A stretch of 61,868 nt of DNA from Candidatus Atribacteria bacterium (GCA_030156825.1 JASGLU010000002.1:1-61868), one strand, 5' to 3'; shown: positions 1-34,085, counted from the stretch's first letter. Numbers and translations: made by a program. Notes: a model not told the origin generated them from the sequence alone.

Positions 1-282
1 TTAGTTTTTCTCTTTTAATCTTTGTTTTTGGGGGTTATTAGGGGGGTCTTTTCCCCCTGATAGTGAGGAAAGTGTTTTCCTTTCCTCAGTTGTCTTTTAT
101 GTATTTTCTTTACGTTTTTTGTATTTTTTGTTTTTCGGGGGTAATAGGGGGTTTACCCCCTATTACTGAGGAAAGTGCCTTTCTTCCTCAGTTGTATTTT
201 AATCTTTGTTTTTGGGGGTTATTAGGGGGGTATTTTCCCCCTGATAGTCGGGGTTATAAGGGGGCAAGCCCCCATTATTGCC
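1..282 (+). repeat. Array of palindromic hairpin modules separated by T-rich linkers. It is the right-hand part of a repeat element cut by the window edge.
   Basis: H1 hairpins (G5-N6-G5/6-loop-C5) at 30-62, 136-166 and 214-246. H2 hairpins (TGAGGAAAG/CTTTCCTCA type) at 64-88 and 166-191. Terminal module GGGGTTATAAGGGGG-CAAG-CCCCCATTATTGCC at 250-282. The 47-nt direct repeat 17-63 = 201-247 has 1 mismatch. Bases 1-30 align with the T-rich tail after the core at 17347-17390. Confidence 0.8.
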
Positions 283-314
283 ATAAGATAGTGAAGGGAG
301 TTGAAAAACATCAT

Positions 315-5404: not shown

Positions 5405-6936
5405 GGAAATTTAATTTTATTTTCCTTTTAGCTGTATTGGGTATCGGAATTGCCAGTCCGATTCTTGGTGCGCAAGTTTTTGAATTTGAGGTCTCTCCAG
5501 CTGAAGTACGCTCACTTGACCGCTTAACCGTTTCTCCTTTTATTTCAATAACTCCCGACAAGGGAGATTTGGCTACTTATTTTGTAGGGGAAACTATTGT
5601 TTTAAATTACAGAAGTGATCGCAGAGGGTATGTGAGCATTTTTGACTATCTTCCTTCCGGTAAGGCCCGAATACTGCGAAATAATGAGCCTATTTCCCCT
5701 GGTTTTGAACGGACTTTGCGGGGGACTGTTTCTGAACCGGAGGGTACGGAAAAATTTTTAATGGTGGTTACTTCCAGAGTTATTCCCGACCGATTGCTGA
5801 TAGAAGCGATGACAAACCCATCCCGGATCCTGGAAATTTTAGGTGAAGACACTTTGATAAACCAATGTACTATTCAAGTAGCTCAAAGAAGGGCTAAATC
5901 CCCTACCTTTATCCGTTTTGACCGTTTGCCGGCTGAAATCTCTTCAGGTAGTAAGGTTCGACTAAGTGCTACTCTTACCGATGCTGAGGGGCGGGCCTTG
6001 GTTAATCGAGAGGTACGCTGGGAGGTTAATCAGGGAACGGTAGATCAACCTTTAACTGTAACCAACTCTTTTGGTCAAGTTGAAGTTTGGTTTTATGCCC
6101 CATCGGTGACAGAACCAACCTATGTTTACCTTCGAGCTTCCTTTCCTGGTGACCATATCTATCAGGAATCTTATGCTGAGATTGAACTTCAGTTAATTCC
6201 TCAAAAAATCAAAACTTTTTTAAGCCTTACTCCTCAAAGTTTTCATTTAGCAAGTGGTGAGTCTTTGGATTTTGAAGTCTATTTAGAAGATGCTCAGGGG
6301 GAGGCGGTTGCAGATCGGAGTATCCTTTGGAGTGCTAATGTGGGAAGCTGGGAAAAAGAAATAACCTATACCAATTCTCAGGGAAAAGCCAGTAATCGCT
6401 GGTTTGCCCCTATGGTGGAAACCTCTCAGACGGTAGAGTTGAAGGCCGAGTTTGCTGGAGTAAGGAATCTCTTACCCGCTCAAGGTTTTGCCTTGGGGAC
6501 GGTTAGTCCAGTACAAGTTTATAGCGGAAAAAGCTATTATATCTTAGATTTCAGCAGTGGCCAAGTAGATACTAATTTTGATAGTATTTTTTACCAGGGA
6601 GACCTGGTAAGCGGTTTTGCTTTGAATCCAGCTCAGACTTTGGCCTTGAAGAAAGGCGAGGTTTTAGAATTAGATTTTACCCTGACCCAACCAGTAAAAA
6701 GAGGAGCTTTGTATCTGTGGGGTAAGTCTGATAGCCCGGCTAAAATAACGATTTATCTCAATCAACAACCTATCTTTTCCAGTCCGACAGCGGAAGGGAT
6801 TATTTCTCCCTTGGAGACTAATGTAATATATTTAACCGATTACCTTTACTTGGGCAGAAACCGGTTAAAAATTGAAGCTTGGCCTGAACACGCGGCTGGG
6901 GCTTTCCTAATCCAGAGAATATTAATCGTATTTTAA
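5401..6936 (+). CDS. Secreted protein with an N-terminal signal peptide, a DUF4384-like domain and two Big_1-like (bacterial Ig-like) repeats
   Basis: Hydrophobic N-terminus FNFIFLLAVLGIGIASPILGA. DUF4384-like region GETIVLNYRSDRRGYVSIFDYLPSGKARIL. Two invasin-like repeats: LSATLTDAEGRALVNREVRW...TNSFGQVEVWFYAP and EVYLEDAQGEAVADRSILW...TNSQGKASNRWFAP. The GTG start overlaps the glgC stop (GTGA). Confidence 0.65.
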   Translation: MRKFNFIFLLAVLGIGIASPILGAQVFEFEVSPAEVRSLDRLTVSPFISITPDKGDLATYFVGETIVLNYRSDRRGYVSIFDYLPSGKARILRNNEPISPGFERTLRGTVSEPEGTEKFLMVVTSRVIPDRLLIEAMTNPSRILEILGEDTLINQCTIQVAQRRAKSPTFIRFDRLPAEISSGSKVRLSATLTDAEGRALVNREVRWEVNQGTVDQPLTVTNSFGQVEVWFYAPSVTEPTYVYLRASFPGDHIYQESYAEIELQLIPQKIKTFLSLTPQSFHLASGESLDFEVYLEDAQGEAVADRSILWSANVGSWEKEITYTNSQGKASNRWFAPMVETSQTVELKAEFAGVRNLLPAQGFALGTVSPVQVYSGKSYYILDFSSGQVDTNFDSIFYQGDLVSGFALNPAQTLALKKGEVLELDFTLTQPVKRGALYLWGKSDSPAKITIYLNQQPIFSSPTAEGIISPLETNVIYLTDYLYLGRNRLKIEAWPEHAAGAFLIQRILIVF

Positions 6937-15907: not shown

Positions 15908-17224
15908 ATGTATGAGTTGGCTCGAGAGTTAAAATCTCGCAGCTTAGAAGGAGATGTTTTTACCAGAAAAATTAGGGCAAAAGAGGTAAGGTACCAGGCA
16001 GACCGGTTTGCTGGTTTTGAAATAAGAGAAAATGAGGGGTATGGTCTCAGAGTAATAAATCCCGAAGGGAAAATTGCCTTTTATGCTTCATCTTCTTTTG
16101 AAGAAAGCCCGCAAGCAGTTTTAGAAAGAACTCTGGCGGCAAGCCAATATGGTGATCGGGTAAAGTTTCATATTCCATCTTATCCTTCGTTGGTGGATTG
16201 GGAAAATTTGGTTGACCCTCGAGTGCAGAATATAAAAGAAACAGAAATGATTGAGTTGGGAGAGTATTTGATTTCTCGCATTAAGGAAGAATATCCGCAA
16301 CTGCTGGTCGATTTAACCGTAGCTGCTGGACTGGAAGAGAAAAGTTTATTTAATCATCACCAAGAGAAGCTATCCTATGCTCAAACTTTTTTCCAAGTGG
16401 GGGTTTCGGTTAACCAGACCAAGGAAGGAGATATTGTAGAAATTTTTTCCGAGAGAAATTGGGGAAATAGGGAATTGGACCTTGATCAGTTTTTGCAGGA
16501 CATACTGCTAAAAATCGAACTTTCCCAGAGAATTAGCGAAATCTCAAGTGGTCAATACCCGGTAGTTTTCACTCCTGAGGGCAGTATCACCCTTTTGTTG
16601 CCCCTTTTCTACGGTCTTAATGGGAAAAATATAGTTTTTGGTAGATCTCCTCTTGGGGAAAAGATGAACAAAGTTATTTTTTCTCCTCTTTTTTCTTTGT
16701 TGGAGCGACCGAAGGAAAAATGGGCTCTCGGCTCTTGCCCATTTGATGATGAAGGAGTGGTAACCGAACAAGAAAAACCGCTTATCGAGGCAGGCGGGTT
16801 GAAAAATTGTTGGTGGGACCTTTGGAGCGCTTCTCAAAAACAGGTTCCCCCTTCTGGTAACGGTTTTCGCTCTTCTTACCGAGATCTACCTCAACCTAAC
16901 TTTACTAATTTAGAAGTGAAAAACGGTTTGAGAGACCGGGAAACTTTGATTGAGGAGATAGAAGAAGGTTTGATAGTAGATAGTGTTTTAGGTTTAGGCC
17001 AAAGTAACATTGCTGCTGGCTATTTTTCCTGTAATATCCACCTGGGTTTTGTGGTAAGAAAAGGAGAAATCCAGGGAAGGGTGAAAAATGTTATGATAAG
17101 TGGTAACATTTACCAGGACCTAAAAAATGTAAAAGAGATTTCTCGGGATAACCGGTGGGTAGGAGGAAGAATGCTTTTACCCTATCTTTTGGTTGACCCT
17201 ATTCAAGTAGAAGCCAAGAACTGA
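15908..17224 (+). CDS. pmbA: PmbA/TldE-family protease partner
   Basis: PmbA_TldD-family translation lacking the HExxH motif. It lies immediately downstream of tldD. Confidence 0.85.
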   Translation: MYELARELKSRSLEGDVFTRKIRAKEVRYQADRFAGFEIRENEGYGLRVINPEGKIAFYASSSFEESPQAVLERTLAASQYGDRVKFHIPSYPSLVDWENLVDPRVQNIKETEMIELGEYLISRIKEEYPQLLVDLTVAAGLEEKSLFNHHQEKLSYAQTFFQVGVSVNQTKEGDIVEIFSERNWGNRELDLDQFLQDILLKIELSQRISEISSGQYPVVFTPEGSITLLLPLFYGLNGKNIVFGRSPLGEKMNKVIFSPLFSLLERPKEKWALGSCPFDDEGVVTEQEKPLIEAGGLKNCWWDLWSASQKQVPPSGNGFRSSYRDLPQPNFTNLEVKNGLRDRETLIEEIEEGLIVDSVLGLGQSNIAAGYFSCNIHLGFVVRKGEIQGRVKNVMISGNIYQDLKNVKEISRDNRWVGGRMLLPYLLVDPIQVEAKN

Positions 17225-17257
17225 GGTTGACTTTAAGCTATAATATTTCGGGCTGGA

Positions 17258-17375
17258 GATAGACCCCCATGTTGCTCGCAGCACCAGGTGACAACGAAAA
17301 AGGAATTCAATATAATAAATTTTAGAGAAACAATAATGGTCTATCCTTTCAGTTTTTCGTTTTTTTTAAGTCTTT
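17258..17375 (+). repeat. Conserved non-coding core of the repeat element, copy 1. It may be a structured RNA or a MITE-like unit.
   Basis: Near-identical to the reverse complement of about 33325-33428. GATAGACC (17258-17265) is complementary to GGTCTATC (17338-17345). The hairpin TGCT-CGC-AGCA (17273-17283) is replaced by GCCCC-TTC-GGGGC in copy 2. Confidence 0.8.
17288..17316 (+). promoter_or_regulatory. Sigma70-like promoter motif inside the repeat core (GTGACA-N17-TATAAT)
   Basis: -35 GTGACA at 17288-17293, a 17-nt spacer and a perfect TATAAT at 17311-17316. Copy 2 has the same geometry (ATAACA-N17-TATAAT, minus strand, 33397-33369). Confidence 0.45.
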
Positions 17376-17384
17376 TGCTTTTTT

Positions 17385-17514
17385 CGGGGGTTATTAGGGG
17401 GTATTTTCCCCCTAATACTGAGGAAGTGTTTCCCTTCCTCAGTTAGTATTTTATGTTTTTTTAGTTTTTGTGTTTTTTTGGGGGTTGATAAGGGGGTTTA
17501 CCCCCTTATTGCCG
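17385..17514 (+). repeat. Hairpin-module array following core copy 1
   Basis: H1: TATTAGGGGG/CCCCCTAATA, 10 bp (17392-17417). H2: CTGAGGAAG/CTTCCTCAG, 9 bp (17418-17442), followed by a T-rich tract. Terminal module ATAAGGGGG-TTTA-CCCCCTTAT then TGCCG (17488-17514). Confidence 0.8.
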
Positions 17515-17561
17515 TTTATAGGATAAAATCGCTAATTTGAGTAGGAAGGTGAAAGATATAT

Positions 17562-20500
17562 ATGTTTGAGCTAATTGATGACTTTTCTCGTCTTTCCCAA
17601 AAAGAAGAAGAAATTATTGATTTTTGGAACAAACATCAGATTTTCCAGAAAAGCCTCAAGTTGAGAGAAAACGCTCCCCGTTTCGTTTTTTACGAAGGAC
17701 CACCCACCACTAATGGCTATCCACATGCTGGTCATGTTATAGGGAGGAGCATCAAAGACCTTATTCCTCGCTACAAAACCATGAGTGGCTATTATGTACC
17801 ACGGAAGGCGGGTTGGGATACTCATGGGCTACCAGTGGAGCTGGAGGTAGAAAAAGAGTTAGGTATTTCCGGTAAACCGGAAATAGAAAAACACGGGATA
17901 GAAAAGTTTAACCAGAAGTGTAAGGATAGTGCCAAAAAATATATCAAAGAATGGGAGAACCTCACCCGGCGTTTAGGGATTTGGATGGATTTAGAAGATC
18001 CTTACATCACTTATAACAATTCTTATATAGAAACCTTGTGGTGGGTTTTGAAAAATCTGTGGGAAAGAGATCTACTCTATCAAGGCTATAAAGTATTACC
18101 TTATTGCGCTCGCTGTGGTACTTCCCTGTCCAGTCACGAGGTAGCTTTAGGTTACCGAGAAACCCAGGATCCATCAGTTTACATTAAATTTCAGTTAGAA
18201 GGAGAAGAAAAAACTTATTTTTTAGTCTGGACTACTACCCCCTGGACTTTGGTGGCTAACGTGGCTTTGGCGGTAGGGGAAGAGCTATCTTATGTTCTGG
18301 TCGAAGATAACCAGAGCAAAGAACGCTATATTTTAAATCGAGAGCGGTTTCAGGCTCTTTTAGCTCAGGATGAGAATTACCGGGTAATCAAGGAATGCTC
18401 GGGTAAACAATTGACCGGAAAAAGATATCGGCCGCTCCTACCTTTTTTGAGAGCAGAAAGGGGCTATCAGGTGTTACCGGCTGATTTTGTTTCTCTGGAT
18501 GAGGGAACTGGGATAGTTCATATTGCCCCGGCATTTGGAGAAGATGATCTCAAATTAGCCCAGGAACATGATTTACCGGTTTTACATCCCGTCAAAGAGG
18601 ACGGGACTTATCGAGATGAAGTAACTCCCTGGAAGGGAATGTGGGTAAAGGATGCCGATCGGTTAATCATTCAGCATTTGAAAGTTGAGGGGAAACTATT
18701 TCGCCAGGAATCTTACCGTCACTCCTATCCTTTTTGCTGGAGATGTGATACCCCCTTGCTTTACTATGCTAAAGAAAGCTGGTTTATTCGCACCACCGCT
18801 TTTAAAGAATTGCTTATTCAAAATAACCAAAAAGTAAATTGGGTTCCTGCTCATATAAAAAATGGACGATTCGGTAATTTTTTGGAAAATATGGTAGATT
18901 GGGCTCTTTCTCGAGAAAGGTACTGGGGTACACCCTTGAATATTTGGGAATGTTCTCAGTGTGGTTACCAAGATGCTGTTGGTTCAATTCAAGAGTTAAC
19001 CAACCGCTCCCGGGAAAAAGTAGAAGAAATTGAACTCCATCGACCCTGGGTAGATAAAGTTACTCTAACCTGTCCTAAGTGCTCTGGAGTAATGAATCGT
19101 CGGCCAGAGGTAATTGATTGCTGGTTTGATTCCGGGGCTATGTTTGTAGCTCAGCACCACTACCCTTTTGAAAATCAGGCACAATTCAAAGAGAACTTCC
19201 CGGCTGACTTTATATGTGAAGCCATTGACCAAACTCGAGGCTGGTTCTATAGTCTTCATGTTTTAGGTGGTTTACTTTTTCAGAGCCCAACTTTTAAAAA
19301 TTGTTTGGTTACCGAGTTGGGTTTGGACGAGAAGGGGCAAAAGATGAGCAAACACATCGGTAACGTAGTAAGCCCCTGGGAGTTGATTGATACCTATGGA
19401 GCCGATGTGCTTAGATGGTATGTTTTTTCAGTTTCCCCTCCTTGGGTGCCTAAAAGGTTTGGCATTCAACCTCTCAAAGAAATTTTTAGTAGATTTTTTA
19501 ATACCTTATGGAACGTTTTTAACTTTTTTGCTATGTATGCTAATATTGACCAATTTGACCCCTATAAGCGGAATTTTGACTTAAGTCAAACTAAAGACGT
19601 ATTCGATCAATGGATTTACTCTCGGTTAGAAAGCCTGATACAGAGAGTAAGGAAAGAGTTAGACGCCCTGGAAGTTTCTAAAGCAGCTAAAGCAATAGAA
19701 ACTTTTGTGGTGGAAGACCTGAGTAACTGGTATATTCGCCGATCCCGGAGACGTTTTTGGAAAAGCGGTTGGGACGAGGATAAAGAAGCCGCTTTTTCCA
19801 CTTTGTACCAGATTCTGAACAAATTAAGTTTACTTTTAGCCCCCTTTATTCCTTTTACCAGTGAGTTACTTTATCAGCGATTAAATCAAACCAATCCGGA
19901 TAAAAGAGAAAGCGTGCATCTGGAGGACTATCCCCAGGTACAATCCCAATTGATTAATGCAAACCTGGAAACTTCGATGGAAATTGCCCGAACCTTGGCC
20001 AATTTAGGTCGGTCAATTCGCAACAAAACCAACCTCAAACTGCGGCAACCTTTGAAAAGAGCCCAGCTGATTGTTCCCAAAGAAGAGGAAAGAAAGGAAG
20101 TAGCTCGATTCGCAGAGTTGATTAAAGAAGAGTTAAACGTAAAAAACATAGAGTGGTTAGAGACTCTTCCTCCGGAAGTCGAGATTAAGTTGAAACCCAA
20201 TTTTGCTGTTTTGGGTCCTAAGTATGGTTCTAAAGTTAAAGACCTAACTCGTTTTTTATCTTCTTTATCTCGTGACCGTATCTTGCGTTTTTTGGAAGAG
20301 GAAAAGCTTGAGGTTGATATTTTTCAGGAAGAAACAATCCTTTCTTTGGAAGAAGTAGAGGTTAGTTTAAGTGCTTTTTCTGAGCTTTCGGTGGAGAGTG
20401 AAAAAGGTTATGCTGTGGTAATGGACACCTCGCTGGACCCGCAGTTAGAAAAAGAAGGATTAGTGCGAGACCTGATTCATACTATTCAAATTTTCCGAAA

Positions 20501-20714
20501 AGAAGCTAATTTTGAAATCGACGATAGAGTAATTCTTTACGTGCTTGATGGTACCGATCCGGAAGTTAAAGCCTTAATTCAGGATTTCCTGGATTTAATC
20601 CGGGATGAGGTTTTGGCACGAGAAATAATCTTTACCCCTGATGGTGAGGGAGTTATTTTAAAAAAAGAAGAAAAAGTGGGAAACAAAAAAATTCGAATAG
20701 CCCTCAAAAAGTAA
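17562..20714 (+). CDS. ileS: Isoleucine--tRNA ligase (long, type-2-like form)
   Basis: HIGH-region PHAGHV, KMSKS motif QKMSKHIGN, a CP1 editing-domain region and Zn-finger CPKCSG. 1050 aa. Confidence 0.95.
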   Translation: MFELIDDFSRLSQKEEEIIDFWNKHQIFQKSLKLRENAPRFVFYEGPPTTNGYPHAGHVIGRSIKDLIPRYKTMSGYYVPRKAGWDTHGLPVELEVEKELGISGKPEIEKHGIEKFNQKCKDSAKKYIKEWENLTRRLGIWMDLEDPYITYNNSYIETLWWVLKNLWERDLLYQGYKVLPYCARCGTSLSSHEVALGYRETQDPSVYIKFQLEGEEKTYFLVWTTTPWTLVANVALAVGEELSYVLVEDNQSKERYILNRERFQALLAQDENYRVIKECSGKQLTGKRYRPLLPFLRAERGYQVLPADFVSLDEGTGIVHIAPAFGEDDLKLAQEHDLPVLHPVKEDGTYRDEVTPWKGMWVKDADRLIIQHLKVEGKLFRQESYRHSYPFCWRCDTPLLYYAKESWFIRTTAFKELLIQNNQKVNWVPAHIKNGRFGNFLENMVDWALSRERYWGTPLNIWECSQCGYQDAVGSIQELTNRSREKVEEIELHRPWVDKVTLTCPKCSGVMNRRPEVIDCWFDSGAMFVAQHHYPFENQAQFKENFPADFICEAIDQTRGWFYSLHVLGGLLFQSPTFKNCLVTELGLDEKGQKMSKHIGNVVSPWELIDTYGADVLRWYVFSVSPPWVPKRFGIQPLKEIFSRFFNTLWNVFNFFAMYANIDQFDPYKRNFDLSQTKDVFDQWIYSRLESLIQRVRKELDALEVSKAAKAIETFVVEDLSNWYIRRSRRRFWKSGWDEDKEAAFSTLYQILNKLSLLLAPFIPFTSELLYQRLNQTNPDKRESVHLEDYPQVQSQLINANLETSMEIARTLANLGRSIRNKTNLKLRQPLKRAQLIVPKEEERKEVARFAELIKEELNVKNIEWLETLPPEVEIKLKPNFAVLGPKYGSKVKDLTRFLSSLSRDRILRFLEEEKLEVDIFQEETILSLEEVEVSLSAFSELSVESEKGYAVVMDTSLDPQLEKEGLVRDLIHTIQIFRKEANFEIDDRVILYVLDGTDPEVKALIQDFLDLIRDEVLAREIIFTPDGEGVILKKEEKVGNKKIRIALKK

Positions 20715-22962: not shown

Positions 22963-23280
22963 TTGAAAAAGGTGAAAGAGACTTACGAGTTTGAGAAGTG
23001 GATTAAACAAATAGAGGAAAAGGTACAGGGACTTTATAGAGAAGAGAAGCTGGAAGTGATAGCCGAAGAAATCTACTCTCGCTATGGCGTGCGGGTATGG
23101 TTCAGCGAGATTTTAGGAAAAAGGTGGTCGCATATTGCGGGGTGGGGAGGATACGACCCCACCCCTACCCATCAGATTCTTCTTTCTCCCCGCTATGGTA
23201 TGACCATAGAGGGAGAGAGAATTCCAGAAGCAGAAAAAGAGGCCCTCCTTTCTTTTATTAAAAAGGAGCTTCCTAATTAG
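22963..23280 (+). CDS. Hypothetical protein, no family recognised
   Basis: A 105-aa ORF with a TTG start. Its tail overlaps the convergent VOC gene by 8 nt. No recognisable motif. Confidence 0.4.
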   Translation: MKKVKETYEFEKWIKQIEEKVQGLYREEKLEVIAEEIYSRYGVRVWFSEILGKRWSHIAGWGGYDPTPTHQILLSPRYGMTIEGERIPEAEKEALLSFIKKELPN

Positions 23281-23653
23281 TTCTTTCTACTATTTCCAGA
23301 GTCTCCCCCATTGGTCCAGAAAAATAGGCGTACTTGAACCCTCCACTTTTGGTTAGGGGAAGGGTGAAGTTTATTCCTTTTTTCATCAGCTCTTCATAGA
23401 TTTCTTCTACATTAGAAACGGCTAAGGCCAGATGGAAAGAAGAAGAGAAGTTGATATCTTTTTCTTCTGGCCGATGAGGAGCGATGACCTCCAGCTGAGT
23501 GTTTCCCAAAGAGAGGAAAACAATATCCGATTGCTCTCCTGCATCATAAAATCGCTCTTCTATCTCCAGCCCTAAAATACCGCAATAAAACTCGAGAGTT
23601 TTATCTAAGTCATTGGTTTTGATGGCTGCATGGTGTAAACCTTGAAAGTTCAT
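23273..23653 (-). CDS. VOC-family protein (glyoxalase/methylmalonyl-CoA epimerase-like)
   Basis: LHHAAIKTNDLDKTLEFYCGILGL...LALAV pattern typical of the VOC fold. Confidence 0.8.
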   Translation of the reverse strand: MNFQGLHHAAIKTNDLDKTLEFYCGILGLEIEERFYDAGEQSDIVFLSLGNTQLEVIAPHRPEEKDINFSSSFHLALAVSNVEEIYEELMKKGINFTLPLTKSGGFKYAYFSGPMGETLEIVERTN

Positions 23654-23663
23654 AAGTTTCCTC

Positions 23664-25943
23664 CTACTTTATAAAAATTTCGCTTCTGAATTTTCTATGC
23701 TTGGTAAGCACTTTTTCTTTTAAAACTTCAAATTCTCCTGAAAGCCGGATATCTTCTGAAGAACTACCTACCATAACCTCAAAAACCCCTGGCTCCACCG
23801 TGAGCCTCATAAACTCATCGTAAAAAGCTAATTGCTCGGGAAAGAGAGTGAAAATAACTTCCTTCTCTTCATCGGGCTGGAGGGTAAAGCGCTTAAATCC
23901 TTTGAGTTCCTTTACCGGCCGCTCTACTGAAGCTATTCGGTCGTGAATATACAGTTGCACTACTTCGTCTCCCGCTCGACTCCCGGTGTTTTTAACTTTA
24001 AAGCTTATCTTAACTCCTTCTAAAGAATTTACCTGAGGAGGAGTAATTTTTAGGTCTGAGTAAGAAAACTTAGTATAGCTCAAACCATGTCCAAAGGGGA
24101 AAAGAGGTTGGGCATCAGTATTTATATAATCATTAAAGGAAGAAGGTTTCCGATTATAATAAACTGGAATTTGCCCTACTCTTTGCGGGAAGGAGATGGG
24201 GAGCTTCCCTCCGGGGTTGTAATCACCGAATAGCACATCGGCTATAGCATTTCCTCCTTCTTCTCCCGGATACCAGGCTTCTAAAATGGCCGGAAGATTT
24301 TCTTTTTCCCACTTGATAGAAAGGGGCCGACCGTTAACCAGAACTAAAACTATAGGTTTTCCGATTTCCTTAAGAGCCTGAAGGAGCTCCTTTTGCCTTC
24401 CGGGGAGATCTAAATCTACCCGGTCGCTCCCCTCTCCCGAAATAGAAGTTTTAAAGAGACCGCTATTTTCCCCCATAACTGCGATAATAACCTCAGATTG
24501 TTCTGCTATTTTCAGTGCTTCCTCGAAACCATCGCCAGATGTATCTAAAAGGTCACATCCCTGAGCATAAAGCACTTTAGTGCTCGCAGAAACTTTATTT
24601 TTTATTCCTTCCAGCACGCTTATCGTCTCCACTGCATCTTCTTCGGTAATTTCTTCTCCTTTCCATTTTCGCACACTGGGGATGTGCACAGTATAACTGT
24701 AGTCTCCATGTAAATTTCTAGTGCTATGAGCATTAGGACCTATAACTGCTATAGTTCCTGAGTCTTTTTTCAGGGGTAGAATGCCCTCATTTTTAAGAAG
24801 AACCATAGATTTCCGAGCTACTTCTCGAGAGAGCTCTCGGTCTTGGGGGGTATCCAGAACTTCTTTCACTTTTTGGGGGTCTATCTCTATGCTTTCTCTC
24901 TCTTTGAGCCCCAGGAGGAATTTTACTTCTAATATTCTTCTAACTGATTCATTTATCACTTCTTCAGAAATCAACCCTTCTTGCACTGCGAGAAGTAGTG
25001 GTTCTCCATAACAATCGGCATCCGGAAGCTCAATGTCTATTCCTGCTTCCAGGGCTTTTATGGCTGCTTCTTGAGTGCTACCAGCTACTCGGTGGAGGTT
25101 TTCTAGCATTCTTATGGCTTCATAGTCAGAAACCACTAACCCTTGAAAACCCCATTCCTCGCGCAGAATTTTAGTTAAGAAAAATCGAGAAGCAGCACAA
25201 GGAATACCATCTATCTCATGATAGGCATTCATAACTGAACCTGCTCTGGCTTCTCTTACCGCCACCTCAAAAGGAAAAAGGAACACTTCTCTTAATTCCC
25301 GTTCTGAGGCTCGAGCAGGAGCTAAATTTCTTCCTCCTTCTGAGATTCCGTAAGCGGGAAAATGCTTGGCAGTAGCGATAATACCTGATTTAAAATCCTC
25401 TCCCTGGAGACCTTTTATATAAGCAGAAGCCATTCGAGAAACAAGATAAGGGTCTTCCCCGAAAGTTTCTTCTGTTCTTCCCCAGCGAGGGTCGCGAGGG
25501 ATATCAAGAACTGGAGATAATCCCTGGTGAGCACCTAAAGCTCTTATTTGTTTTCTTATTGCTGATGTAGCCTGGTGGATAATATCGGGATCAAAAGTGC
25601 TACCCATACCTATAGCCTGAGGAAACACGGTTGCTCCCCAGGCGGTAAAGCCACTTAAACATTCTTCGTGAATCATAGCCGGGATTCCGAGACGGGTTTC
25701 TTCTCTCAAGAATTTTTGGATTTCGTTGCCTATCTCCGCTGCTTTTTTGGGCTTCATACCTGCCCCACCAGCTATTCTGGTGATTTGTCCAATACCATTT
25801 TTTAAAAGTTCTCGGGCCTTTTCCCGAGAAAATTGACCATTTTCCAGCAGTCGGTGGGCATGAATAGAGCCCAACTGAGCCACTTTTTCTTCTAAGGTCA
25901 TACGAGAGAGTAAGTCGCTTACCGATTGGGTTACAGTTTTCAT
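23664..25943 (-). CDS. Glycoside hydrolase family 3 beta-glucosidase
   Basis: GH3 N-domain (KHFPAYG, GLVVSDYEAI nucleophile region), C-domain and Fn3-like tail. 759 aa. Confidence 0.92.
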   Translation of the reverse strand: MKTVTQSVSDLLSRMTLEEKVAQLGSIHAHRLLENGQFSREKARELLKNGIGQITRIAGGAGMKPKKAAEIGNEIQKFLREETRLGIPAMIHEECLSGFTAWGATVFPQAIGMGSTFDPDIIHQATSAIRKQIRALGAHQGLSPVLDIPRDPRWGRTEETFGEDPYLVSRMASAYIKGLQGEDFKSGIIATAKHFPAYGISEGGRNLAPARASERELREVFLFPFEVAVREARAGSVMNAYHEIDGIPCAASRFFLTKILREEWGFQGLVVSDYEAIRMLENLHRVAGSTQEAAIKALEAGIDIELPDADCYGEPLLLAVQEGLISEEVINESVRRILEVKFLLGLKERESIEIDPQKVKEVLDTPQDRELSREVARKSMVLLKNEGILPLKKDSGTIAVIGPNAHSTRNLHGDYSYTVHIPSVRKWKGEEITEEDAVETISVLEGIKNKVSASTKVLYAQGCDLLDTSGDGFEEALKIAEQSEVIIAVMGENSGLFKTSISGEGSDRVDLDLPGRQKELLQALKEIGKPIVLVLVNGRPLSIKWEKENLPAILEAWYPGEEGGNAIADVLFGDYNPGGKLPISFPQRVGQIPVYYNRKPSSFNDYINTDAQPLFPFGHGLSYTKFSYSDLKITPPQVNSLEGVKISFKVKNTGSRAGDEVVQLYIHDRIASVERPVKELKGFKRFTLQPDEEKEVIFTLFPEQLAFYDEFMRLTVEPGVFEVMVGSSSEDIRLSGEFEVLKEKVLTKHRKFRSEIFIK

Positions 25944-26003
25944 AAAACTAACCTCCTCTTTAATTTAAAACACAAAATTTTAGCTCGAGAATTGTGTTAC
26001 GGG

Positions 26004-26957
26004 TTACTTTATATATTTGTGGCACTTTACTACTACTCCATTCACAGAGATGTCCTCTGGTGCTTTTTGCTTACATATTTCTTGAACTTCTGGACATCTT
26101 CCGGCGAATTTGCACCCTGATCGGAGATATTCTTCTTTTTCTTCCAAAAAAGTAATCGATGTTTTATAGCGCTCTTGGGGATCCGGTTTGGGAATGGATT
26201 CAAGAAGGAGTTGAGTATAGGGGTGTTTGGGTTTTCCCAGAACCTCTTCTACTGATCCAGTTTCTACTATGTTCCCTCGAAACATTATCCCTATTCTATC
26301 GCTAACATAATAAGCAGTTGCTAGATCATGAGTGATATAAATCACACTCACTTCCAGAGAATCCCTCAATTTGCGAAACAGGTTAACTATGGACATTCGC
26401 AAAGAGGCATCCACCATAGAAACTGGCTCATCAGCCACTAAAAGAAAAGGGTTAGTTAAGAGAGAACGAGCAATTGAAGCCCTCTGCAGTTGTCCTCCAG
26501 AAAGCTCGCCAGGGTATTTTCCCGCAATTTCTGAGAGAGAAAGACCTACTTGCTGAAGCTTTTCTTCGATTAAAACTGATGCCTTTCTCCCTTCTTTATC
26601 TAACTGGTAGTTGTGGATAGTCTCAAAGAAATAGCATTCCACTTTACGTAAGGGGTTAAAAGTTTCAAAAGGATTTTGGAAAACTGCTTGTACTTCTTTA
26701 AACCAGGCTTTTTTATCCTGGAACTCTTCTATTTTTCGGTTTTGATATCTAATTTCTCCCGAAGTGGGAGGCTCAAAACCCAGAATCATTCGGGCGGTAG
26801 TAGTTTTCCCACAGCCACTTTCTCCCGCTAAAGTAAAAATCTCGGCGGGCTTCACGGTAAAAGAAATTTGATCTACCGCTTTTATCCTAAGCCGAGAAAA
26901 TAGGCTTCCTAAAGAGAAAATCTTGGTAAGATCCTTAACTTCAAGAACAACTGGCAC
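26004..26957 (-). CDS. ABC transporter ATP-binding protein (OppF/DppF-like)
   Basis: Walker A GESGCGKTT, signature LSGGQLQR, Walker B LLVADEP and an oligopeptide-type C-terminal Cys-rich extension. Confidence 0.92.
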   Translation of the reverse strand: MPVVLEVKDLTKIFSLGSLFSRLRIKAVDQISFTVKPAEIFTLAGESGCGKTTTARMILGFEPPTSGEIRYQNRKIEEFQDKKAWFKEVQAVFQNPFETFNPLRKVECYFFETIHNYQLDKEGRKASVLIEEKLQQVGLSLSEIAGKYPGELSGGQLQRASIARSLLTNPFLLVADEPVSMVDASLRMSIVNLFRKLRDSLEVSVIYITHDLATAYYVSDRIGIMFRGNIVETGSVEEVLGKPKHPYTQLLLESIPKPDPQERYKTSITFLEEKEEYLRSGCKFAGRCPEVQEICKQKAPEDISVNGVVVKCHKYIK

Positions 26958-27942
26958 GGTTATTCCCCCTTAAAAAGCAGGCCACCTTGTGATCTATGTT
27001 AACTCTTACTAATTCTGGTACTTCCTGAGAACAGAGAGGAAAAGCTTGAGGACAGCGAGGATGGAAGAGACAACCTGGCGGAGGTTCTACCAGAGAAGGA
27101 GGGCTTCCCGGCGCACTTTCTCGAGGGGTTTTATCCCCAATTTTAGGTAAAGAGTGGATTAGGTACTGGGTGTAAGGGTGAAGGGGATGGTTAAAAATAT
27201 CTTCGGTAGAGCCTTCTTCCATGATTTTACCTGCATACATGATGGCCATTCTGGTAGCAATGTTGGCATGGATGCCCATATCGTGAGTTACCAAAACTAT
27301 AGTGTTTTGAAGTTCCTTTTGAACGTCTTGCATGAGTTGGAGTACTGCTCTTTGGGCAACCACATCCAAAGCGGTAGTAGGTTCGTCAGCCAGAATAATG
27401 CGGGGTTTAAGTAAAGTGGAAAGAGCAATCGCTACTCTCTGTCTCATTCCTCCAGACAATTGGTGGGGGTAAGCGTCTAATATTCGGGGAGAGAGGCCTA
27501 ATGTTTTGAGGTGATGGTTGGTCAGAGAGAGTAATTCCTCTCTATCTTTGCCTCGGACATGACTTTCCAAAAAATCCAAGAAGGTAACCTTTAACTTTTT
27601 GACCGGGTTGAAAGCGCTCATAGAACCCTGGGGAATATAGGAGATATAGGTCCAGCGCAACTCTCTCTTTTCTCTTGCTGAAAGAGAAAAAGCATCTATA
27701 TATTTATCGTTTACGCAGTAATATACTCTTCCTTCAAATGCTCTCAGGGGAGGTTCAATGTTAGCAAAAAGAACCTTAAGCAAAGTGGTTTTCCCACAGC
27801 CACTTTCTCCGGCAATGCCATAGACCTCATTTCCAGGGATTTGCAGATTAACCCCATGGACGGCTTTCGCTATTCTTTTTTCCCCCAGAGTTTCCAGAAC
27901 ATAAAATACTTGCAAATTTTCTGCTTTAAGCACTTCATTCAT
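26941..27942 (-). CDS. ABC transporter ATP-binding protein (OppD/DppD-like)
   Basis: Walker A GESGCGKTT, signature LSGGMRQR, Walker B ILADEPTTALD and C-terminal CLFHPRCP. Confidence 0.92.
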   Translation of the reverse strand: MNEVLKAENLQVFYVLETLGEKRIAKAVHGVNLQIPGNEVYGIAGESGCGKTTLLKVLFANIEPPLRAFEGRVYYCVNDKYIDAFSLSAREKRELRWTYISYIPQGSMSAFNPVKKLKVTFLDFLESHVRGKDREELLSLTNHHLKTLGLSPRILDAYPHQLSGGMRQRVAIALSTLLKPRIILADEPTTALDVVAQRAVLQLMQDVQKELQNTIVLVTHDMGIHANIATRMAIMYAGKIMEEGSTEDIFNHPLHPYTQYLIHSLPKIGDKTPRESAPGSPPSLVEPPPGCLFHPRCPQAFPLCSQEVPELVRVNIDHKVACFLRGNNRASCS

Positions 27943-27944
27943 TT

Positions 27945-28799
27945 TTATTTTGCTCCTATTCTTTGAATTCGCATCCGAGGGTCAAGATATTCACTTACAC
28001 TTACCGATAACCAATAAAGAGCAACTAAAAGTAATATAGTTAAAATCAAAGGAGTTAATATCCACCACCAGTGTCCTAAGAGCATGGCCTGGTAACTAAT
28101 AGCCCACTGAAGCATAGTCCCCAGGGTAGGAATTTCTAACCGAACCAGACCCAAAATAGCCAACACGATTTCCATACCAATTGCCCAACCTATGTTGTTA
28201 ATCAGAGTGGAAAAGATGAGGGGCATAGTAAAAGGGAGATATTCTTTGGTTACCAGAGGTAATGTTTTGTTTCCTGCAAGAATTGATGTTTGTGTGAATT
28301 CCCTCTCGCGCAAGCTCAAAACCTGTGATCGGATAGTTCTGGCATCCCAGGCCCATCCGAAAAAAGCTAAAAGAAGACCGGTATTCACCAGGGTCATAGC
28401 TTCTCGTAGTAACATGGTTACCATGACCAGAATCAAAAACAGAGGAATTACCAAAAGTCCATCAGAAATGCCCATAAGAATTCTGTCAGTGAGGCCTCCT
28501 TTGTATCCGGAGGTAAACCCAACCAGAATAGCAACCACTCTTGAAAGTAATCCAGCAATTAGTGCGATGATAAATGAGTTTCTTATAGCAAAGGTTGCTT
28601 CCCAAAAGACGTCTTGACCTTTGGAGTTAGTCCCTAAGATATGAGGCCATGATGGAGGTTTATCTCGTGCGACCTGCAACCATTCAATAGGGTCATAAGG
28701 CGAAAAAAAGGAAGCAATTGCCAAAAACACCAATAAACATAAAATAATAAAGCCGATGGTGAATCGATAATCTTTAAAAAGGTCTTTTAATATTCCCAT
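27945..28799 (-). CDS. ABC transporter permease (OppC/DppC-like)
   Basis: Multi-TM BPD_transp_1-type protein. HILGTNSKGQDVF is the N-terminal motif typical of OppC-type permeases. Confidence 0.88.
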   Translation of the reverse strand: MGILKDLFKDYRFTIGFIILCLLVFLAIASFFSPYDPIEWLQVARDKPPSWPHILGTNSKGQDVFWEATFAIRNSFIIALIAGLLSRVVAILVGFTSGYKGGLTDRILMGISDGLLVIPLFLILVMVTMLLREAMTLVNTGLLLAFFGWAWDARTIRSQVLSLREREFTQTSILAGNKTLPLVTKEYLPFTMPLIFSTLINNIGWAIGMEIVLAILGLVRLEIPTLGTMLQWAISYQAMLLGHWWWILTPLILTILLLVALYWLSVSVSEYLDPRMRIQRIGAK

Positions 28800-28806
28800 A
28801 TCTTTC

Positions 28807-29811
28807 TCACCGGTGTCGAATTCGGGGGTCGAGTAGAGGATAGATTAAATCCAGAACCAATACCGCTGTCGCAATGGTCAGGATAGAGAGGGTAGTGATT
28901 CCCATCACTAAATTATAGTCACCCCGGGTTACTCCTCGATAAAGTAAAAGGCCCATCCCGGGGTAGGAAAATACCATCTCTACTATCAAAACACCACTAA
29001 AAACTTGTCCTAAGGCAAGAGTAAGTTGAGTAATTTGGGGAAGCATAGCATTTGGTAAAACATACCGAGAAATGATAAGTCGTTCTTTTACTCCTCCTGC
29101 TTGAGCATACTGTATAAAATCTTCTCTCTTTACATTTTGCACCAACAGTTTCATTTGCTGAAACCAGCTTGCTCCCCCCAGAATCACCAAAGTTAATGCC
29201 GGGAGAAAAGAGTAGTGCAAGACGCGCAGGACAAAATCAAGGTTGAAGGCTGTTCTCCTGCCCAACACAAGTCCCCCAACCGGGAAAAGTGGCCAAACAT
29301 AAGCAAACAGAATAAGTAACAGAATACCAAATACATAGTGGGGAATAGGTCTAATGACCATGATGATGGCGTCTAAAACTTTTGACCAGCGTTTCTGGGA
29401 AAAATATCCGGATATACCTCCCAATAAATTTCCCAAAATCCATGACAGTAAAGTTGAGGTAATAAATAAGCCCATTGTCCAGGGGAGGTATATTCTGAGA
29501 AGATCTGACACTGGTGTTGGAAATTGAAAGAGAGAAGGGCCAAAATCAAGAGTAAAAACTCTTTTCCACATGGTAATATATTGCTCAAAGAGACTACCTT
29601 TTAGACCATATAGTTCTTCAAGGCTTTTCATCAAACTCTCGACAGCAGTGGGATCTAAGGAACCTCCCTGGACTTGTATTTGAGCGATCATTTCTAAAAC
29701 CGGGTCTTGGCCAGCAATGCGCGGAATAAAAAATACGGCGGTAATTCCGCAAAAAACCACTAATAAATATTGTACAAGTCTGGGGAAGAGGTAATCTTTT
29801 ATAAATTTCAT
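28807..29811 (-). CDS. ABC transporter permease (OppB/DppB-like)
   Basis: MKFIKDYLFPRLVQ... is the canonical OppB-type N-terminus, and the protein ends in DPRIRHR. ATG at 29811 follows AGGAGA. The longer ORF-track start at 29985 would overlap the SBP gene. Confidence 0.88.
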   Translation of the reverse strand: MKFIKDYLFPRLVQYLLVVFCGITAVFFIPRIAGQDPVLEMIAQIQVQGGSLDPTAVESLMKSLEELYGLKGSLFEQYITMWKRVFTLDFGPSLFQFPTPVSDLLRIYLPWTMGLFITSTLLSWILGNLLGGISGYFSQKRWSKVLDAIIMVIRPIPHYVFGILLLILFAYVWPLFPVGGLVLGRRTAFNLDFVLRVLHYSFLPALTLVILGGASWFQQMKLLVQNVKREDFIQYAQAGGVKERLIISRYVLPNAMLPQITQLTLALGQVFSGVLIVEMVFSYPGMGLLLYRGVTRGDYNLVMGITTLSILTIATAVLVLDLIYPLLDPRIRHR

Positions 29812-29829
29812 GATAGCTCTCCTTCTTGC

Positions 29830-29859
29830 GGCTTCCTGGCGGATGTTCGCCAGGAAGCC
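29830..29859 (-). promoter_or_regulatory. Intercistronic GC-rich stem-loop between the SBP and first permease genes
   Basis: Perfect 12-bp inverted repeat GGCTTCCTGGCG / CGCCAGGAAGCC with a 6-nt loop and no U-tract. It lies just upstream of the permease RBS. Confidence 0.6.
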
Positions 29860-29869
29860 TTGTATGCAG

Positions 29870-31774: not shown

Positions 31775-31826
31775 AAAATTTTACCTCCTCCTTCAATTTA
31801 AATCTCTCTTCAACACATTATTTTAC

Positions 31827-32849
31827 TCATTTTACTAAACACCGTCTTCCTATTAACTTACATGGTAAAACAATTCCCTTTTCCTCACCTCCTCTTATTC
31901 TCTCTGCTAAAAGTTCAGCGGCAACTTTCCCCAGCTCTCCTAAGGGTTGCTCTACTGTGGGGAGAGGCGGTTCGGTATACTTGACTGCTTCGATTCCATC
32001 AAAGCCGATGATATTGATATCATCATGAACTTTAATGCCTCTTTCTTTAGCTACTTGTAAGGCGCCGATAGCCATTTTATCGTTAGCAGCAAAAATTGCC
32101 GTGGGAAGAGGAGAGACTTGAAGTAACTTTTCCATCGCTTCCCTCCCACTTATCCGGCGGAAGTTTCCCTCTACTACATACTCTTTTTTAAGAGGAATAC
32201 CGAAATCTAAAAGAGTGTCTACATAAGCTTTATATCTATCTTCAGCATGACGATGCTCCCGAGGGCCTCGTAGATGAGCAATGTGCCGGTGGCCTTTTTC
32301 TATTAGATATTTAACGGCTTCTTTCGCTCCTCCGTAGTGGTCAATATCTACATAACTTACTCCTTCTCCTTCTACTCGCTGATTAACAATGACAAAGGGA
32401 AAGTTTTCCTTAACTAAGTCACTAACTTCAGAATAATGAATAGGCCAGTGAGAAAGGATAATCAGCCCTTCGAAAAGGCGGTTGCGAGCAATATTTAAAA
32501 GAGCTTCTCGCTTATCTAAAGGATGACCGTTAAAAAACTCTCCTTTTACTACTATTTGCAGGTAGTATCCTTCCCGAGAAATGGCAGCCAAAAGGTGGTT
32601 AATCAATTCTCCATAAAAAGCAGAGAGTTTTTCCTGTTCTTTAATGAATGCACAAAGAAGAATGGTGTTAGTTTTACCCTTTACTAAACTTCGAGCTACA
32701 ATGTTGGGACGATATCCCAATTTTTGTGCTGCTTCTTCCACTTTTTTTTGAGTTTCTTCCGATACCTTGCCTTTTCCATTTAAAACCATTGATACTGTGG
32801 CTGGAGATACACCAGCTAATTTTGCTACGTCTTTAATGGTTACGGGCAC
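31827..32849 (-). CDS. LacI-family transcriptional regulator
   Basis: N-terminal HTH VTIKDVAKLAGVSPATVSMVLNG plus a periplasmic-binding-fold effector domain. GTG start after GAAGGAG. Confidence 0.92.
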   Translation of the reverse strand: MPVTIKDVAKLAGVSPATVSMVLNGKGKVSEETQKKVEEAAQKLGYRPNIVARSLVKGKTNTILLCAFIKEQEKLSAFYGELINHLLAAISREGYYLQIVVKGEFFNGHPLDKREALLNIARNRLFEGLIILSHWPIHYSEVSDLVKENFPFVIVNQRVEGEGVSYVDIDHYGGAKEAVKYLIEKGHRHIAHLRGPREHRHAEDRYKAYVDTLLDFGIPLKKEYVVEGNFRRISGREAMEKLLQVSPLPTAIFAANDKMAIGALQVAKERGIKVHDDINIIGFDGIEAVKYTEPPLPTVEQPLGELGKVAAELLAERIRGGEEKGIVLPCKLIGRRCLVK

Positions 32850-32863
32850 ATTTTTTCTCCTTC

Positions 32864-32877
32864 ATTAAAACGATTTA
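32864..32877. promoter_or_regulatory. Candidate LacI-family operator O1
   Basis: TTAAAACGATTTAA is a CG-centred 14-bp near-palindrome. It lies between the predicted -10 and the lacI-like RBS. Confidence 0.55.
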
Positions 32878-32894
32878 ATAAAATTATTCGCTAT

Positions 32895-32923
32895 TAATAT
32901 AGATTATATTTTATAGCTTGTCA
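32895..32923 (-). promoter_or_regulatory. Predicted sigma70-type promoter of the LacI-ABC-GH3 operon
   Basis: On the minus strand: TTGACA (32923-32918), a 17-nt spacer and TATATT (32900-32895). Confidence 0.55.
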
Positions 32924-32952
32924 ATGGTGGAGAGAGAAAAATTTTATTATTA

Positions 32953-32966
32953 ATTGAAACGATTTA
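32953..32966. promoter_or_regulatory. Candidate LacI-family operator O2
   Basis: TTGAAACGATTTAA is a second copy of the O1 motif, 89 bp centre-to-centre from O1 and upstream of the -35. Confidence 0.5.
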
Positions 32967-33211: not shown

Positions 33212-33247
33212 ATTGGACAGAATGATGAAGATAGTGGTGAGGATAGA

Positions 33248-33428
33248 CGGCAATAAGGGGGAGTACCCCCTTATAAATCCCCGAAAGCAAAAAACTTAAA
33301 AAATAAAAGGCAAAGACTTAAAAAACGAAAAACTGAAAGGATAGACCACTATTGTTTCTCTAAGATTTATTATATTGAATTCCGTTTTCATTGTTATCTG
33401 GTGCCCCGAAGGGGCATGGGGGTCTATC
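33248..33428 (-). repeat. Repeat element copy 2, inverted relative to copy 1: a core plus one terminal hairpin module
   Basis: The reverse complement aligns with 17258-17375 and with the terminal module 17480-17514 (ATAAGGGGG-TACT-CCCCCTTATTGCCG). The H1/H2 modules of copy 1 are absent. Confidence 0.8.
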
Positions 33429-34063: not shown

Positions 34064-34085
34064 TAGTTTCACCTCAGCTTTCTTA

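Follow-up and report, generated by a model that had tools for sequence, protein, structure and literature searches.

A repeated non-coding core in a Candidatus Atribacteria sequence opens with the probable left end of an IS110-family element

A core of about 115 bases repeated in the DNA of a Candidatus Atribacteria bacterium (GCA_030156825.1, JASGLU010000002.1:1-61868; the whole stretch of 61,868 nt is referred to as the window) was found to begin with the left end (LE) of a miniature derivative, without genes, of an IS110-family insertion sequence that occurs in Atribacterota and Bacillota, and it is therefore most likely a relic of mobile DNA and not a new RNA gene. IS110 elements have a DEDD recombinase that is guided by a bridge RNA. 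The copies in the window are very probably non-autonomous, MITE-like derivatives of an IS110-family element. What is new here is most likely a gene-less IS110 derivative of this clade, of a kind already known from MITEPpu9, and not a new class of RNA. A false lead is removed, as the apparent new structured RNA with its covarying hairpin can most probably be put down to the conserved end of a transposon family already known.

Copies of the core in the window

The initial annotation, made from the sequence alone, had described a non-coding core of about 115 nt present twice in inverted orientation, and both parts of this description were borne out. Comparison of 17230-17420 (+) with the reverse complement of 33270-33460 gave a colinear alignment of 17258-17375 (+) with 33428-33310 (-) at about 91% identity, within which an ungapped stretch of 90 nt (17276-17365 against 33320-33409) is 91% complementary. 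Two perfect occurrences in the window, where about zero are expected, were counted both for the 14-mer GATAGACCCCCATG and for the 19-mer GGAATTCAATATAATAAAT. The likeness of the two copies runs past the ends first assigned to the core, through a T-rich tract and then to a terminal hairpin, ATAAGGGGG-loop-CCCCCTTATTGCC. A third copy (copy 0), truncated by the start of the window, lies at 1-291 (+) and was recognized because the first bases of the array there align with the T-rich tail of the core. The window holds three dispersed copies in 62 kb, and the flanks of copies 1 and 2 are unrelated. A small ORF starting at the ATG was considered and dropped, as its frame shifts with loop length.

Copy 1 lies between pmbA/tldD (15908-17224) and ileS (17562-20714). 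Copy 2 begins where a PIN toxin gene (33424-33846, -) ends, the TAG in the GATAG of the copy being the stop codon of that gene, and it faces a convergent pseudogene on the opposite strand, a 56-aa C-terminal Amidohydro_2 fragment. The same junction of pmbA with the core recurs in the independent Logan contig L001, which speaks against a chimeric assembly at copy 1, a possibility that the annotation had itself raised; this contig stops about 40 nt into the core, which is typical repeat behaviour. The features of the copies, listed by window coordinates and strand, are as follows.

17258..17262 (+), copy 1: GATAG, target-side flank with the putative AG core (17261-17262) at the left junction, from the flanks of intact IS and the AG core of ISPpu9
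17263..17300 (+), copy 1: LE terminal module ACCCCCATG-hairpin-CACCAG...ACGAAAAA; covariance model R1, 54.9 bits, E 1.7e-12
17270..17283 (+), copy 1: LE hairpin TGTTGC-TC-GCAGCA, previously read as TGCT-CGC-AGCA at 17273-17283
17288..17316 (+), copy 1: sigma-70-like site GTGACA-17-TATAAT, 11/12, with its -10 element inside Atribacterota-specific cargo
17338..17346 (+), copy 1: GGTCTATCC, the 3' arm of the bracket and inverted form of GGATAGACC, with TTTCAG next
17347..17393 (+), copy 1: T-rich tract (TTTCAGTTTTTCGTTTTTTTTAAG...)
17394..17443 (+), copy 1: single two-hairpin unit, TTAGGGGG-loop-CCCCCTAA and then ACTGAGGAAG-loop-CTTCCTCAGT, the latter terminator-like
17488..17513 (+), copy 1: terminal hairpin ATAAGGGGGTTTACCCCCTTAT and TGCC
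17514..17526 (+), copy 1: decayed right end GTTTATAGGATAA; GTTTACAGGATAG in relatives, TTTTCAGGATAG in intact IS
33384..33428 (-), copy 2: GATAG and LE terminal module; R1, 69.3 bits, E 2.7e-16
33369..33397 (-), copy 2: sigma-70-like site ATAACA-17-TATAAT, 10/12
33339..33347 (-), copy 2: inverted 9-mer GGTCTATCC, with TTTCAG and the T-rich tract next
33253..33274 (-), copy 2: terminal hairpin ATAAGGGGGTACTCCCCCTTAT
33241..33248 (-), copy 2: GTCTATCC at the expected place of the right end
1..291 (+), copy 0: T-rich tail, about 2.5 two-hairpin units, terminal hairpin (257-275) and decayed right end ...GCCATAAGATAG, with GATAG at 287-291

The AG core was placed at the left junction because the flanks of intact elements diverge directly before ATAG, on its 5' side, and GGATAG closes the right ends. 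The right ends (RE) of copies 1 and 0 are degenerate (GGATAA, AAGATAG) and that of copy 2 has been replaced; here GTCTATCC and the left junction form a perfect 10-bp inverted repeat, GAGGATAGAC. Since the right ends are decayed or replaced and no recombinase gene lies nearby, the window copies are probably immobile relics.

Homologues and intact IS110-family elements

The pattern GATAGACCCCCATG-N(8-14)-CACCAG was scanned in one genome per species and in JGI metagenomes; in high-GC genomes most of the matches lay by chance inside coding regions and were set aside. Homologues were found in Candidatus Atribacter alterifermentans (L013, L015), Candidatus Carbobacillus altaicus (L007, L009, L016), other Bacillota MAGs (L012, L020, L021) and metagenome contigs (L025/L029, L027, L031/49/52, L037, L042/51/56, L050, L053), with several copies per contig in L029, L037, L042 and L053. 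Among viral contigs one pattern had no match and the other a single chance match in a coding region, the phage collection had none, and the 14-mer was not found as a literal string in literature text. The covariance model R1, built from 21 short copies only, detected 45 copies at E <= 1e-3 in the collected loci.

The whole 115-nt core is present in three Atribacterota loci (L025, L027 and L029b), whose composites end in GTTTACAGGATAG/A, and sharing across phyla is limited to the first ~50 nt. In general form the unit reads GGATAG-ACCCCCATG-[hairpin]-CACCAG-N8-ATGAAA(A)...(T)TTTCA-GGATAG, and its insert measures 8 nt to several hundred nt. Carbobacillus and L012 have 64-nt units in head-to-tail pairs, and a complete TwoAYGGAY RNA of Rfam forms the insert of L021 and L037. 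The Atribacterota insert comprises the remainder of the core and hairpin arrays, the composite ending ...CCCCCTTATTGCCGTTTACAGGATAG. These arrays occur also without LE modules, and may therefore be an independent repeat family beside the element and not its cargo. Gene-less IS110 derivatives as short as 64 nt, tandem arrangements and varying cargo among them, are documented for Bacillota and the mostly uncultured Atribacterota.

The 91% identity over 90 nt would also be expected if the two copies were merely a recent segmental duplication in this genome, without wider meaning. That explanation is contradicted by the homologues from other genomes and phyla, more than 40 copies in all, by cores of other Atribacterota, some of which match copy 2 as closely as copy 1 does or more so, and by the unrelated flanks of the two copies; it is considered extremely improbable.

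A blastn search of PLSDB with the consensus module gave a match on a plasmid of Alicyclobacillus dauci, where the module lies ~60 nt upstream of an annotated IS110-family transposase with the domains PF01548 (DEDD_Tnp_IS110) and PF02371, and TTATTTTCAGGATAG lies ~100 nt past its stop codon. This plasmid copy has lost ~145 nt of its left end, guide-like segments included. Homologues of the A. dauci recombinase at 78-100% identity number more than 8000, some of them named 'IS110 family RNA-guided transposase' by NCBI. Intact elements of ~1575 bp (~1.58 kb), with an LE of 251 nt and an RE of 106 nt, carry the module at the same place. Three chromosomal copies in Kyrpidia tusciae, all in unrelated flanks, start directly after the flank with ATAGACTGCCATG-hairpin-CACCAGCAGAAGGATGAAAAT and end with TTTTCAGGATAG; their edges are ATAGACTGCCATGCCGCCGGGGCGGCACCAGCAGAAGGATGAAAATGG... 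~250 nt upstream of the ATG and ...TTGATTTTCAGGATAG at the far side. A second IS lineage, found in many contexts, starts with AACAGACATCCATG-hairpin-CACCATCGGAAGGATGAAAAT and has the right end of the Kyrpidia element, its edges reading AACAGACATCCATGCCGTTAAAGCGGCACCATCGGAAGGATGAAAATGAC... and ...TAATTTTCAGGATAG; a ClpB gene was noted in the flank of this lineage. The module was seen also at the LE of intact IS110-family elements in metagenomes.

The first ~47 nt of the unit (GGAT-AG-ACCCCCATG-hairpin-CACCAG...ATGAAAA) match the terminal LE of the Kyrpidia tusciae, Alicyclobacillus dauci and metagenome elements, and the LE module of copy 1 can be aligned to the left ends of Kyrpidia, A. dauci and the second lineage. 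R1, although trained on short copies only, gave one match per intact-IS locus, at the LE terminus ~250 nt upstream of the CDS (E 3e-7 to 3e-13). By these matches the module shared across phyla corresponds to the terminal part of an IS110-family left end, and (T)TTTCAGGATAG to its right end. The initial annotation had not recognised the core as an IS end, yet its first ~47 nt are the LE terminus of bona fide IS110-family elements, and it is a match to a known IS family that the annotation had named as evidence against its own reading. On an Anoxybacillus plasmid there is an internal-deletion intermediate, in which the LE module is followed by 71 aa left over from the C-terminus of the recombinase (49% identity) and then by the right end.

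Inside the Kyrpidia LE, same-sense copies of the terminus occur at ~121 (ATAGACTG) and ~182 (AGGATAGA), and the LE of the second lineage has the terminus copies TTAACAGACA and CAGGATAG, the first of which changes together with the terminus. Internal copies of this kind are what bridge-RNA guides would look like, and they point to the outer AG of the module as the crossover site. The idea of a recombination site, put forward in the annotation, was close, with the difference that the putative crossover is the AG in GGAT-AG at the 5' edge and not the variable hairpin.

A different origin of the module was considered, in which it is a host REP-like repeat that IS110 elements target, each short copy being a target that no insertion has interrupted. 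Insertion into repeats is known for IS110 elements, IS621 and ISPpu9 at REP sequences being examples (PMC11208160, PMC12288879), and the diverse inserts (transposase gene, TwoAYGGAY, hairpin arrays) all lie at one place, between ATGAAAA and TTTTCAGG. Within each IS lineage, however, the 47-nt module is identical at every site despite varied flanks, and between lineages it changes with the recombinase. The guide-like segments of the LE match the outer edges (ATAGAC... and ...AGGATAG) and not the supposed insertion point, and the repeat-collapsed Logan contigs L079 and L078 end exactly at ...CAGGATAG, L079 also starting exactly at ATAGAC. A split host repeat is thus held to be improbable, and assignment of the module to the element itself is preferred.

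The element family has IS-homologous termini, the LE by R1 and the RE by the GTTTACAGGATAG of L025, L027 and L029b, set against TTTTCAGGATAG in intact elements, and the window copies, whose own right ends are decayed or replaced, are dispersed among unrelated flanks, as MITE-like derivatives are. What defines an autonomous IS110-family element, a DEDD recombinase (PF01548 and PF02371) and an LE bridge RNA, was not found in them. A tblastn search with the A. dauci recombinase gave no IS110 recombinase gene in the window or in any fetched Atribacterota locus, and the genome and metagenome scans yielded no Atribacterota IS110 element with this left end, so that a parent element in the phylum is assumed. 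The guide-like segments of intact elements (LE ~121 and ~182) have no counterpart in the window copies, of which only LE ~1-47 is kept.

The spacer between pmbA and ileS is 45 nt in four related Atribacterota contigs (L059-L062) versus 337 nt in the window. The closest homologues of the window's PmbA are from Atribacteria MAGs at 60-63% identity, and genomes ~60% identical in PmbA are too diverged for exact boundaries, hence this presence/absence polymorphism at an orthologous site, seen in distant relatives only, is supportive and not precise. One of the contigs with the empty site (Ga0134101_1000157) has a full composite elsewhere (L025), so its lineage has the element family and yet an empty pmbA-ileS site.

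Pairing in the module and its cargo

The variable hairpin reads TGTTGC-TC-GCAGCA in copy 1 (17270-17283) and TGCCCC-TTC-GGGGCA in copy 2 (33416-33402, -), between identical flanks (CCCCCA...CCAG); the observation that its sequence is swapped while its pairing is kept applies to both copies. In family register, the hairpin of copy 1 derives from a third allele, CTGC-TTC-GCAG (metagenome loci L025/L029), from which it differs by one C>T, giving a U.G wobble, and a 1-nt deletion in the loop. The three Atribacterota loci with the whole core have either CCCC-TTC-GGGG or CTGC-TTC-GCAG, while the degenerate copy L031 has the hybrid CCCC-TTC-GCAG, in which two pairs are broken.

When 38 distinct copies were aligned with the model, 98.2% of the cells of the six-pair hairpin proved to be paired, and three of its six pairs show double-sided changes (9 cells). 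None of 500 shuffles matched the observed covariation score or percentage paired, and sliding the 3' partner by 1-3 columns lowered the covariation score to at most 0.053 versus 0.183 in the true register. The hairpin is selected for pairing, and the structural selection suspected earlier is in this respect supported. The non-canonical cells are T.G (six), C.A (two), C.C (one) and C.T (one), and the excess of T.G over C.A suggests, weakly at best, that folding takes place on the given strand.

The complementary 9-mers that bracket the core, GGATAGACC and GGTCTATCC, pair perfectly over 9 bp in copy 2 (33429-33421 with 33347-33339), and in copy 1 (17258-17265 with 17338-17346) the 5' arm is GATAGACC, an 8/9 match. 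The bracket described in the annotation is real in both copies, with the qualification that it is specific to the Atribacterota cargo and does not covary. The 3' arm is unchanged in 5/5 Atribacterota cores and the 5' arm in 4/5, the exception being copy 1 with a single altered base, and arms that otherwise never vary give no covariation either way. The 9-mer bracket is absent from the Bacillota copies, which have GGATAG as a direct repeat at both ends, and is therefore cargo and not a feature of the family. A pseudoknot of the bracket with TGAAA/TTTCA was rejected as sterically impossible, the linker having zero length.

Inverted repeats around a promoter-like site might also denote an invertible switch, in which GGATAGACC and GGTCTATCC flank a ~75-bp segment flipped by a site-specific recombinase, and IS110 recombinases can invert DNA between inverted sites (PMC11208160). 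The internal orientation relative to the outer flanks is, however, the same in 5/5 cores from at least three genomes, the segment is very short for looping by a recombinase, and the Bacillota copies lack the bracket. Such a switch is very improbable, and the bracket is better read as part of the cargo of a MITE-like derivative.

A second complementarity joins LE ~40-47 to the terminus of the right end, and the two covary: the pair is TGAAAAT/ATTTTCA in most copies, GTAAAT/ATTTAC in L012 and TGAAAACGG/CCGTTTACA in Atribacterota. For bridge-recombinase biology, the stem-loop at the LE terminus and this covarying complementarity are candidate cis requirements for donor recognition.

No Rfam family was found in the window at gathering scores, in agreement with the annotation, and searches around copy 1 at E up to 10 and on the L056 cargo at E up to 1 gave noise only. 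In 15 homologous loci and four intact-IS loci there was no relevant family, the only hits being T-box, TPP and TwoAYGGAY in related loci, and a search for tRNA and tmRNA found neither. By single-sequence folding, the core is no more stable than its shuffled versions (z = -0.02 and -1.44). The cargo of the window copies contains TATAAT, a long-range 9-bp stem with a U-rich tract behind it, and hairpin arrays with terminator-like hairpins. The U-tract follows GGUCUAUCC. By a crude ORF call, 17/22 of the nearest ORFs downstream and 13/25 of those upstream have the same orientation.

Some of these features would suit an RNA that is independent of the IS, either a small RNA gene of Atribacterota or a cis-regulatory RNA, equipped with a promoter and a terminator of its own and resembling IS ends through exaptation or incidentally: TATAAT is present in 5/5 Atribacterota cores, with promoter-like scores of 11/12 and 10/12 in the window, the 9-bp closing stem precedes a U-rich tail, the hairpin covaries, and 17 of the 22 nearest downstream ORFs share the strand. 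Against this, no Rfam family matches, the folding is no better than that of shuffles, the closing stem has no variation and hence no covariation, copy 2 faces a convergent pseudogene and not a gene, and the pmbA-ileS site is empty in relatives. The predicted transcription start, moreover, lies downstream of the covarying hairpin, which places the hairpin outside that RNA. An independent RNA gene accordingly has little probability compared with an IS110-derived relic.

Further candidates were dropped: a CsrA sponge, as its GGA motifs are not conserved; a tRNA-minihelix mimic (GCACCA), as the stem is too short; IS200/IS605 or REP/RAYT ends, as each unit here has a single hairpin and the geometry is wrong; and integron attC-like sites.

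Possible mobilization and known counterparts

In IS621, recombination is centred on a short core, and the LE encodes a bridge RNA of ~177 nt that has a 5' stem-loop followed by target- and donor-binding loops; a 22-bp donor functions with the bridge RNA supplied in trans (PMC11208160). The core of ISPpu9 is an AG dinucleotide, and MITEPpu9, a MITE-like derivative of ISPpu9, carries an sRNA gene and forms minicircles (PMC12288879).

On the preferred reading, the present element starts just past the putative AG core within GGAT-AG and continues with ~47 nt of the parental LE, comprising the right-donor arm ACCCCCATG, the conserved stem-loop and CACCAG...ATGAAAA. Cargo stands in place of the bridge-RNA region and the recombinase gene, and intact relatives close with the parental right end ...GTTTACAGGAT-AG. 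Short copies would retain both donor arms and could be excised as circles and re-inserted by the recombinase and bridge RNA of a full-length element, whose donor-binding loop would recognize the sequences flanking the core. Insertion beside an existing copy would give head-to-tail tandems as seen in Bacillota; the resemblance of the target left arm GGAT-AG to the element's own right end would explain them. Pairing of the hairpin would be kept because the parent lineage selects for it. The LE hairpin may be the counterpart of the 5' stem-loop of bridge RNA, an assignment that is weak, as a look across the RE-LE junction brought up no evident sigma-70 promoter. Through its cargo the element may also act on adjacent genes, ileS among them.

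Compared with the IS110 group, for example IS621, the family in the window has termini homologous to the LE and RE of intact elements (recombinase PF01548 and PF02371), whose LE is long and RE short (251 versus 106 nt), which have no terminal inverted repeats, and in which a short core, putatively AG, lies at both junctions and guide-like LE segments match the termini. The window copies differ in having neither a recombinase gene nor a bridge-RNA guide region, and in keeping ~47 nt of LE and at most 13 nt of a decayed RE. The LE/RE complementarity of the clade resembles the subterminal inverted repeats of the family, but at 7-9 bp it is longer than the 2-3-bp STIR reported for the IS110 group (PMC11208160), and it is asymmetric in position.

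The IS1111 subgroup is marked by an RE longer than the LE, a bridge/seek RNA in the RE, and subterminal inverted repeats of 7-17 bp. The intact relatives, in which the LE (251 nt) is longer than the RE (106 nt) and guide-like segments lie in the LE, have the look of the IS110 group; a complementarity of 7-9 bp between LE and RE is present as well.

The nearest counterpart is MITEPpu9 of Pseudomonas putida, the only MITE-like IS110 derivative met in the literature searched. It is likewise gene-less, with parent-like LE and RE flanks, several copies per genome, an AG core, a small non-coding cargo (the sRNA Ssr9) and proposed mobilization in trans by the parent recombinase (PMC12288879). The copies described here belong to another IS110 clade and other host phyla, reach minimal forms of ~64 nt and head-to-tail tandems, and carry as cargo a promoter-like site with variable hairpin arrays or, in Bacillota, TwoAYGGAY RNA.

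BOX elements of Streptococcus pneumoniae have the organization boxA-boxB(n)-boxC. The present repeats are like them in architecture, with no kinship of sequence expected, being intergenic and modular with a conserved head, 0-4 internal hairpin units and a conserved tail; BOX elements are not known to be linked to IS110. The REP/BIME targets of IS110 elements are also short, intergenic, hairpin-containing repeats tied to such elements, but the repeat described here moves as a part of the IS, which does not split it.

A bolder proposal, which we regard as rather unlikely, is that the ~47-nt LE module, with its donor arm, stem-loop and STIR-like arm, is a cis recognition unit needed by this IS110 clade beyond the ~22-bp donor, and that 64-nt shells consisting of the module and a 13-nt RE serve as a vehicle by which unrelated non-coding cargo hitch-hikes across phyla, in Atribacterota promoter/terminator cassettes and hairpin arrays. 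Were it true, the orphan TwoAYGGAY RNA (RF01731) would gain a mobile-element context in Bacillota, and the Atribacterota composites would be exapted promoter-terminator modules and not dead relics. For annotation, copies of this kind account for assembly breaks and for long 'empty' intergenic regions in Atribacterota MAGs.

Truncated third copy and the 3' edge of copy 2

Besides copies 1 and 2, the probable gene-less MITE-like IS110-family derivatives, a third copy of the composite (left-end module, cargo and right end) was found at the start of the window, and the 3' edge of copy 2 was found next to a gene fragment.

1-291, plus strand: third composite copy, truncated by the window start, whose T-rich tail can be aligned to that of the core
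33041-33211, plus strand: C-terminal fragment of Amidohydro_2, 56 codons (Pfam E 3e-4, profile positions 232-289 of 289)

The T-rich tail of the third copy is accompanied by about 2.5 two-hairpin units and a terminal hairpin at 257-275, and its right end is decayed (...GCCATAAGATAG), with a PHP-domain gene immediately downstream. Copy 2 lacks a right end and its 3' edge reads GTCTATCCTC. As a result, GAGGATAGAC forms a perfect 10-bp inverted repeat with one arm at each end of the 190-bp copy (33239-33248 versus 33423-33432), possibly left behind by a rearrangement that a recombinase mediated. The Amidohydro_2 fragment, which adjoins this edge and has no N-terminal part, is probably a truncated pseudogene.

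Minus-strand gene island

23273-34072, minus strand: gene island breaking into plus-strand housekeeping genes

The island includes genes for a glyoxalase, a GH3 protein, LacI, a PIN/RHH toxin-antitoxin pair and a peptide-type ABC transporter together with its binding protein. In relatives the syntenic region lacks the island, and there the HD gene is followed by HSP20-DnaJ-MerR-ClpB. R1, the covariance model of the left-end (LE) module built from short copies only, gave a weak match (E 0.04, GATAGACCCCCAAA) within the GH3 coding region (24851-24897, minus strand), which is most likely due to chance.

Two-hairpin units

Each unit consists of GGGGGTTATWAGGGGG-loop-CCCCCTAATA, CTGAGGAAAG-loop-CTTTCCTCAG and a T-rich spacer, in that order. 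The units form a family recurrent across intergenic regions of Atribacterota, in arrays of 0 to 4 or more, found both within IS110-derived composites and where there is no LE module at all. They match no Rfam family.

17394-17443 and 40-250: units in the window
4820-5350 of L025 and about 20725 of L060: units in other Atribacterota contigs

Related IS110 shells and intact elements

In two Bacillota MAG contigs (L021 and L037), the orphan motif TwoAYGGAY was found as cargo inside a shell of IS110 LE module and right end.

L021 6502-6567, minus strand: Rfam TwoAYGGAY (RF01731), between LE module and right end
L037 1699-1853, plus strand: Rfam TwoAYGGAY (RF01731), with the LE module at 1605-1675
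L063 4001-4106, A. dauci plasmid NZ_CP104065.1: IS110 copy with an internal left-end deletion

The same shell holds internally deleted versions of TwoAYGGAY in L020, another Bacillota locus, and in L037 (4584 and 5796-5866), which has further TwoAYGGAY copies without an LE module. The plasmid IS110, whose insertion point directly follows a tyrosine integrase gene's stop codon, has lost about 145 nt of its left end, including the putative bridge-RNA guide segments. The second lineage of intact elements, found in many contexts, sits among short tandem (C)AGGATTAAC-like repeats (left flanks of L066, L069, L072 and L073), and its right flank always starts with GATTAAA; these repeats on the left and the constant sequence on the right suggest a target that is repeat-specific and reads ...GATTAAC-AG-GATTAAA.
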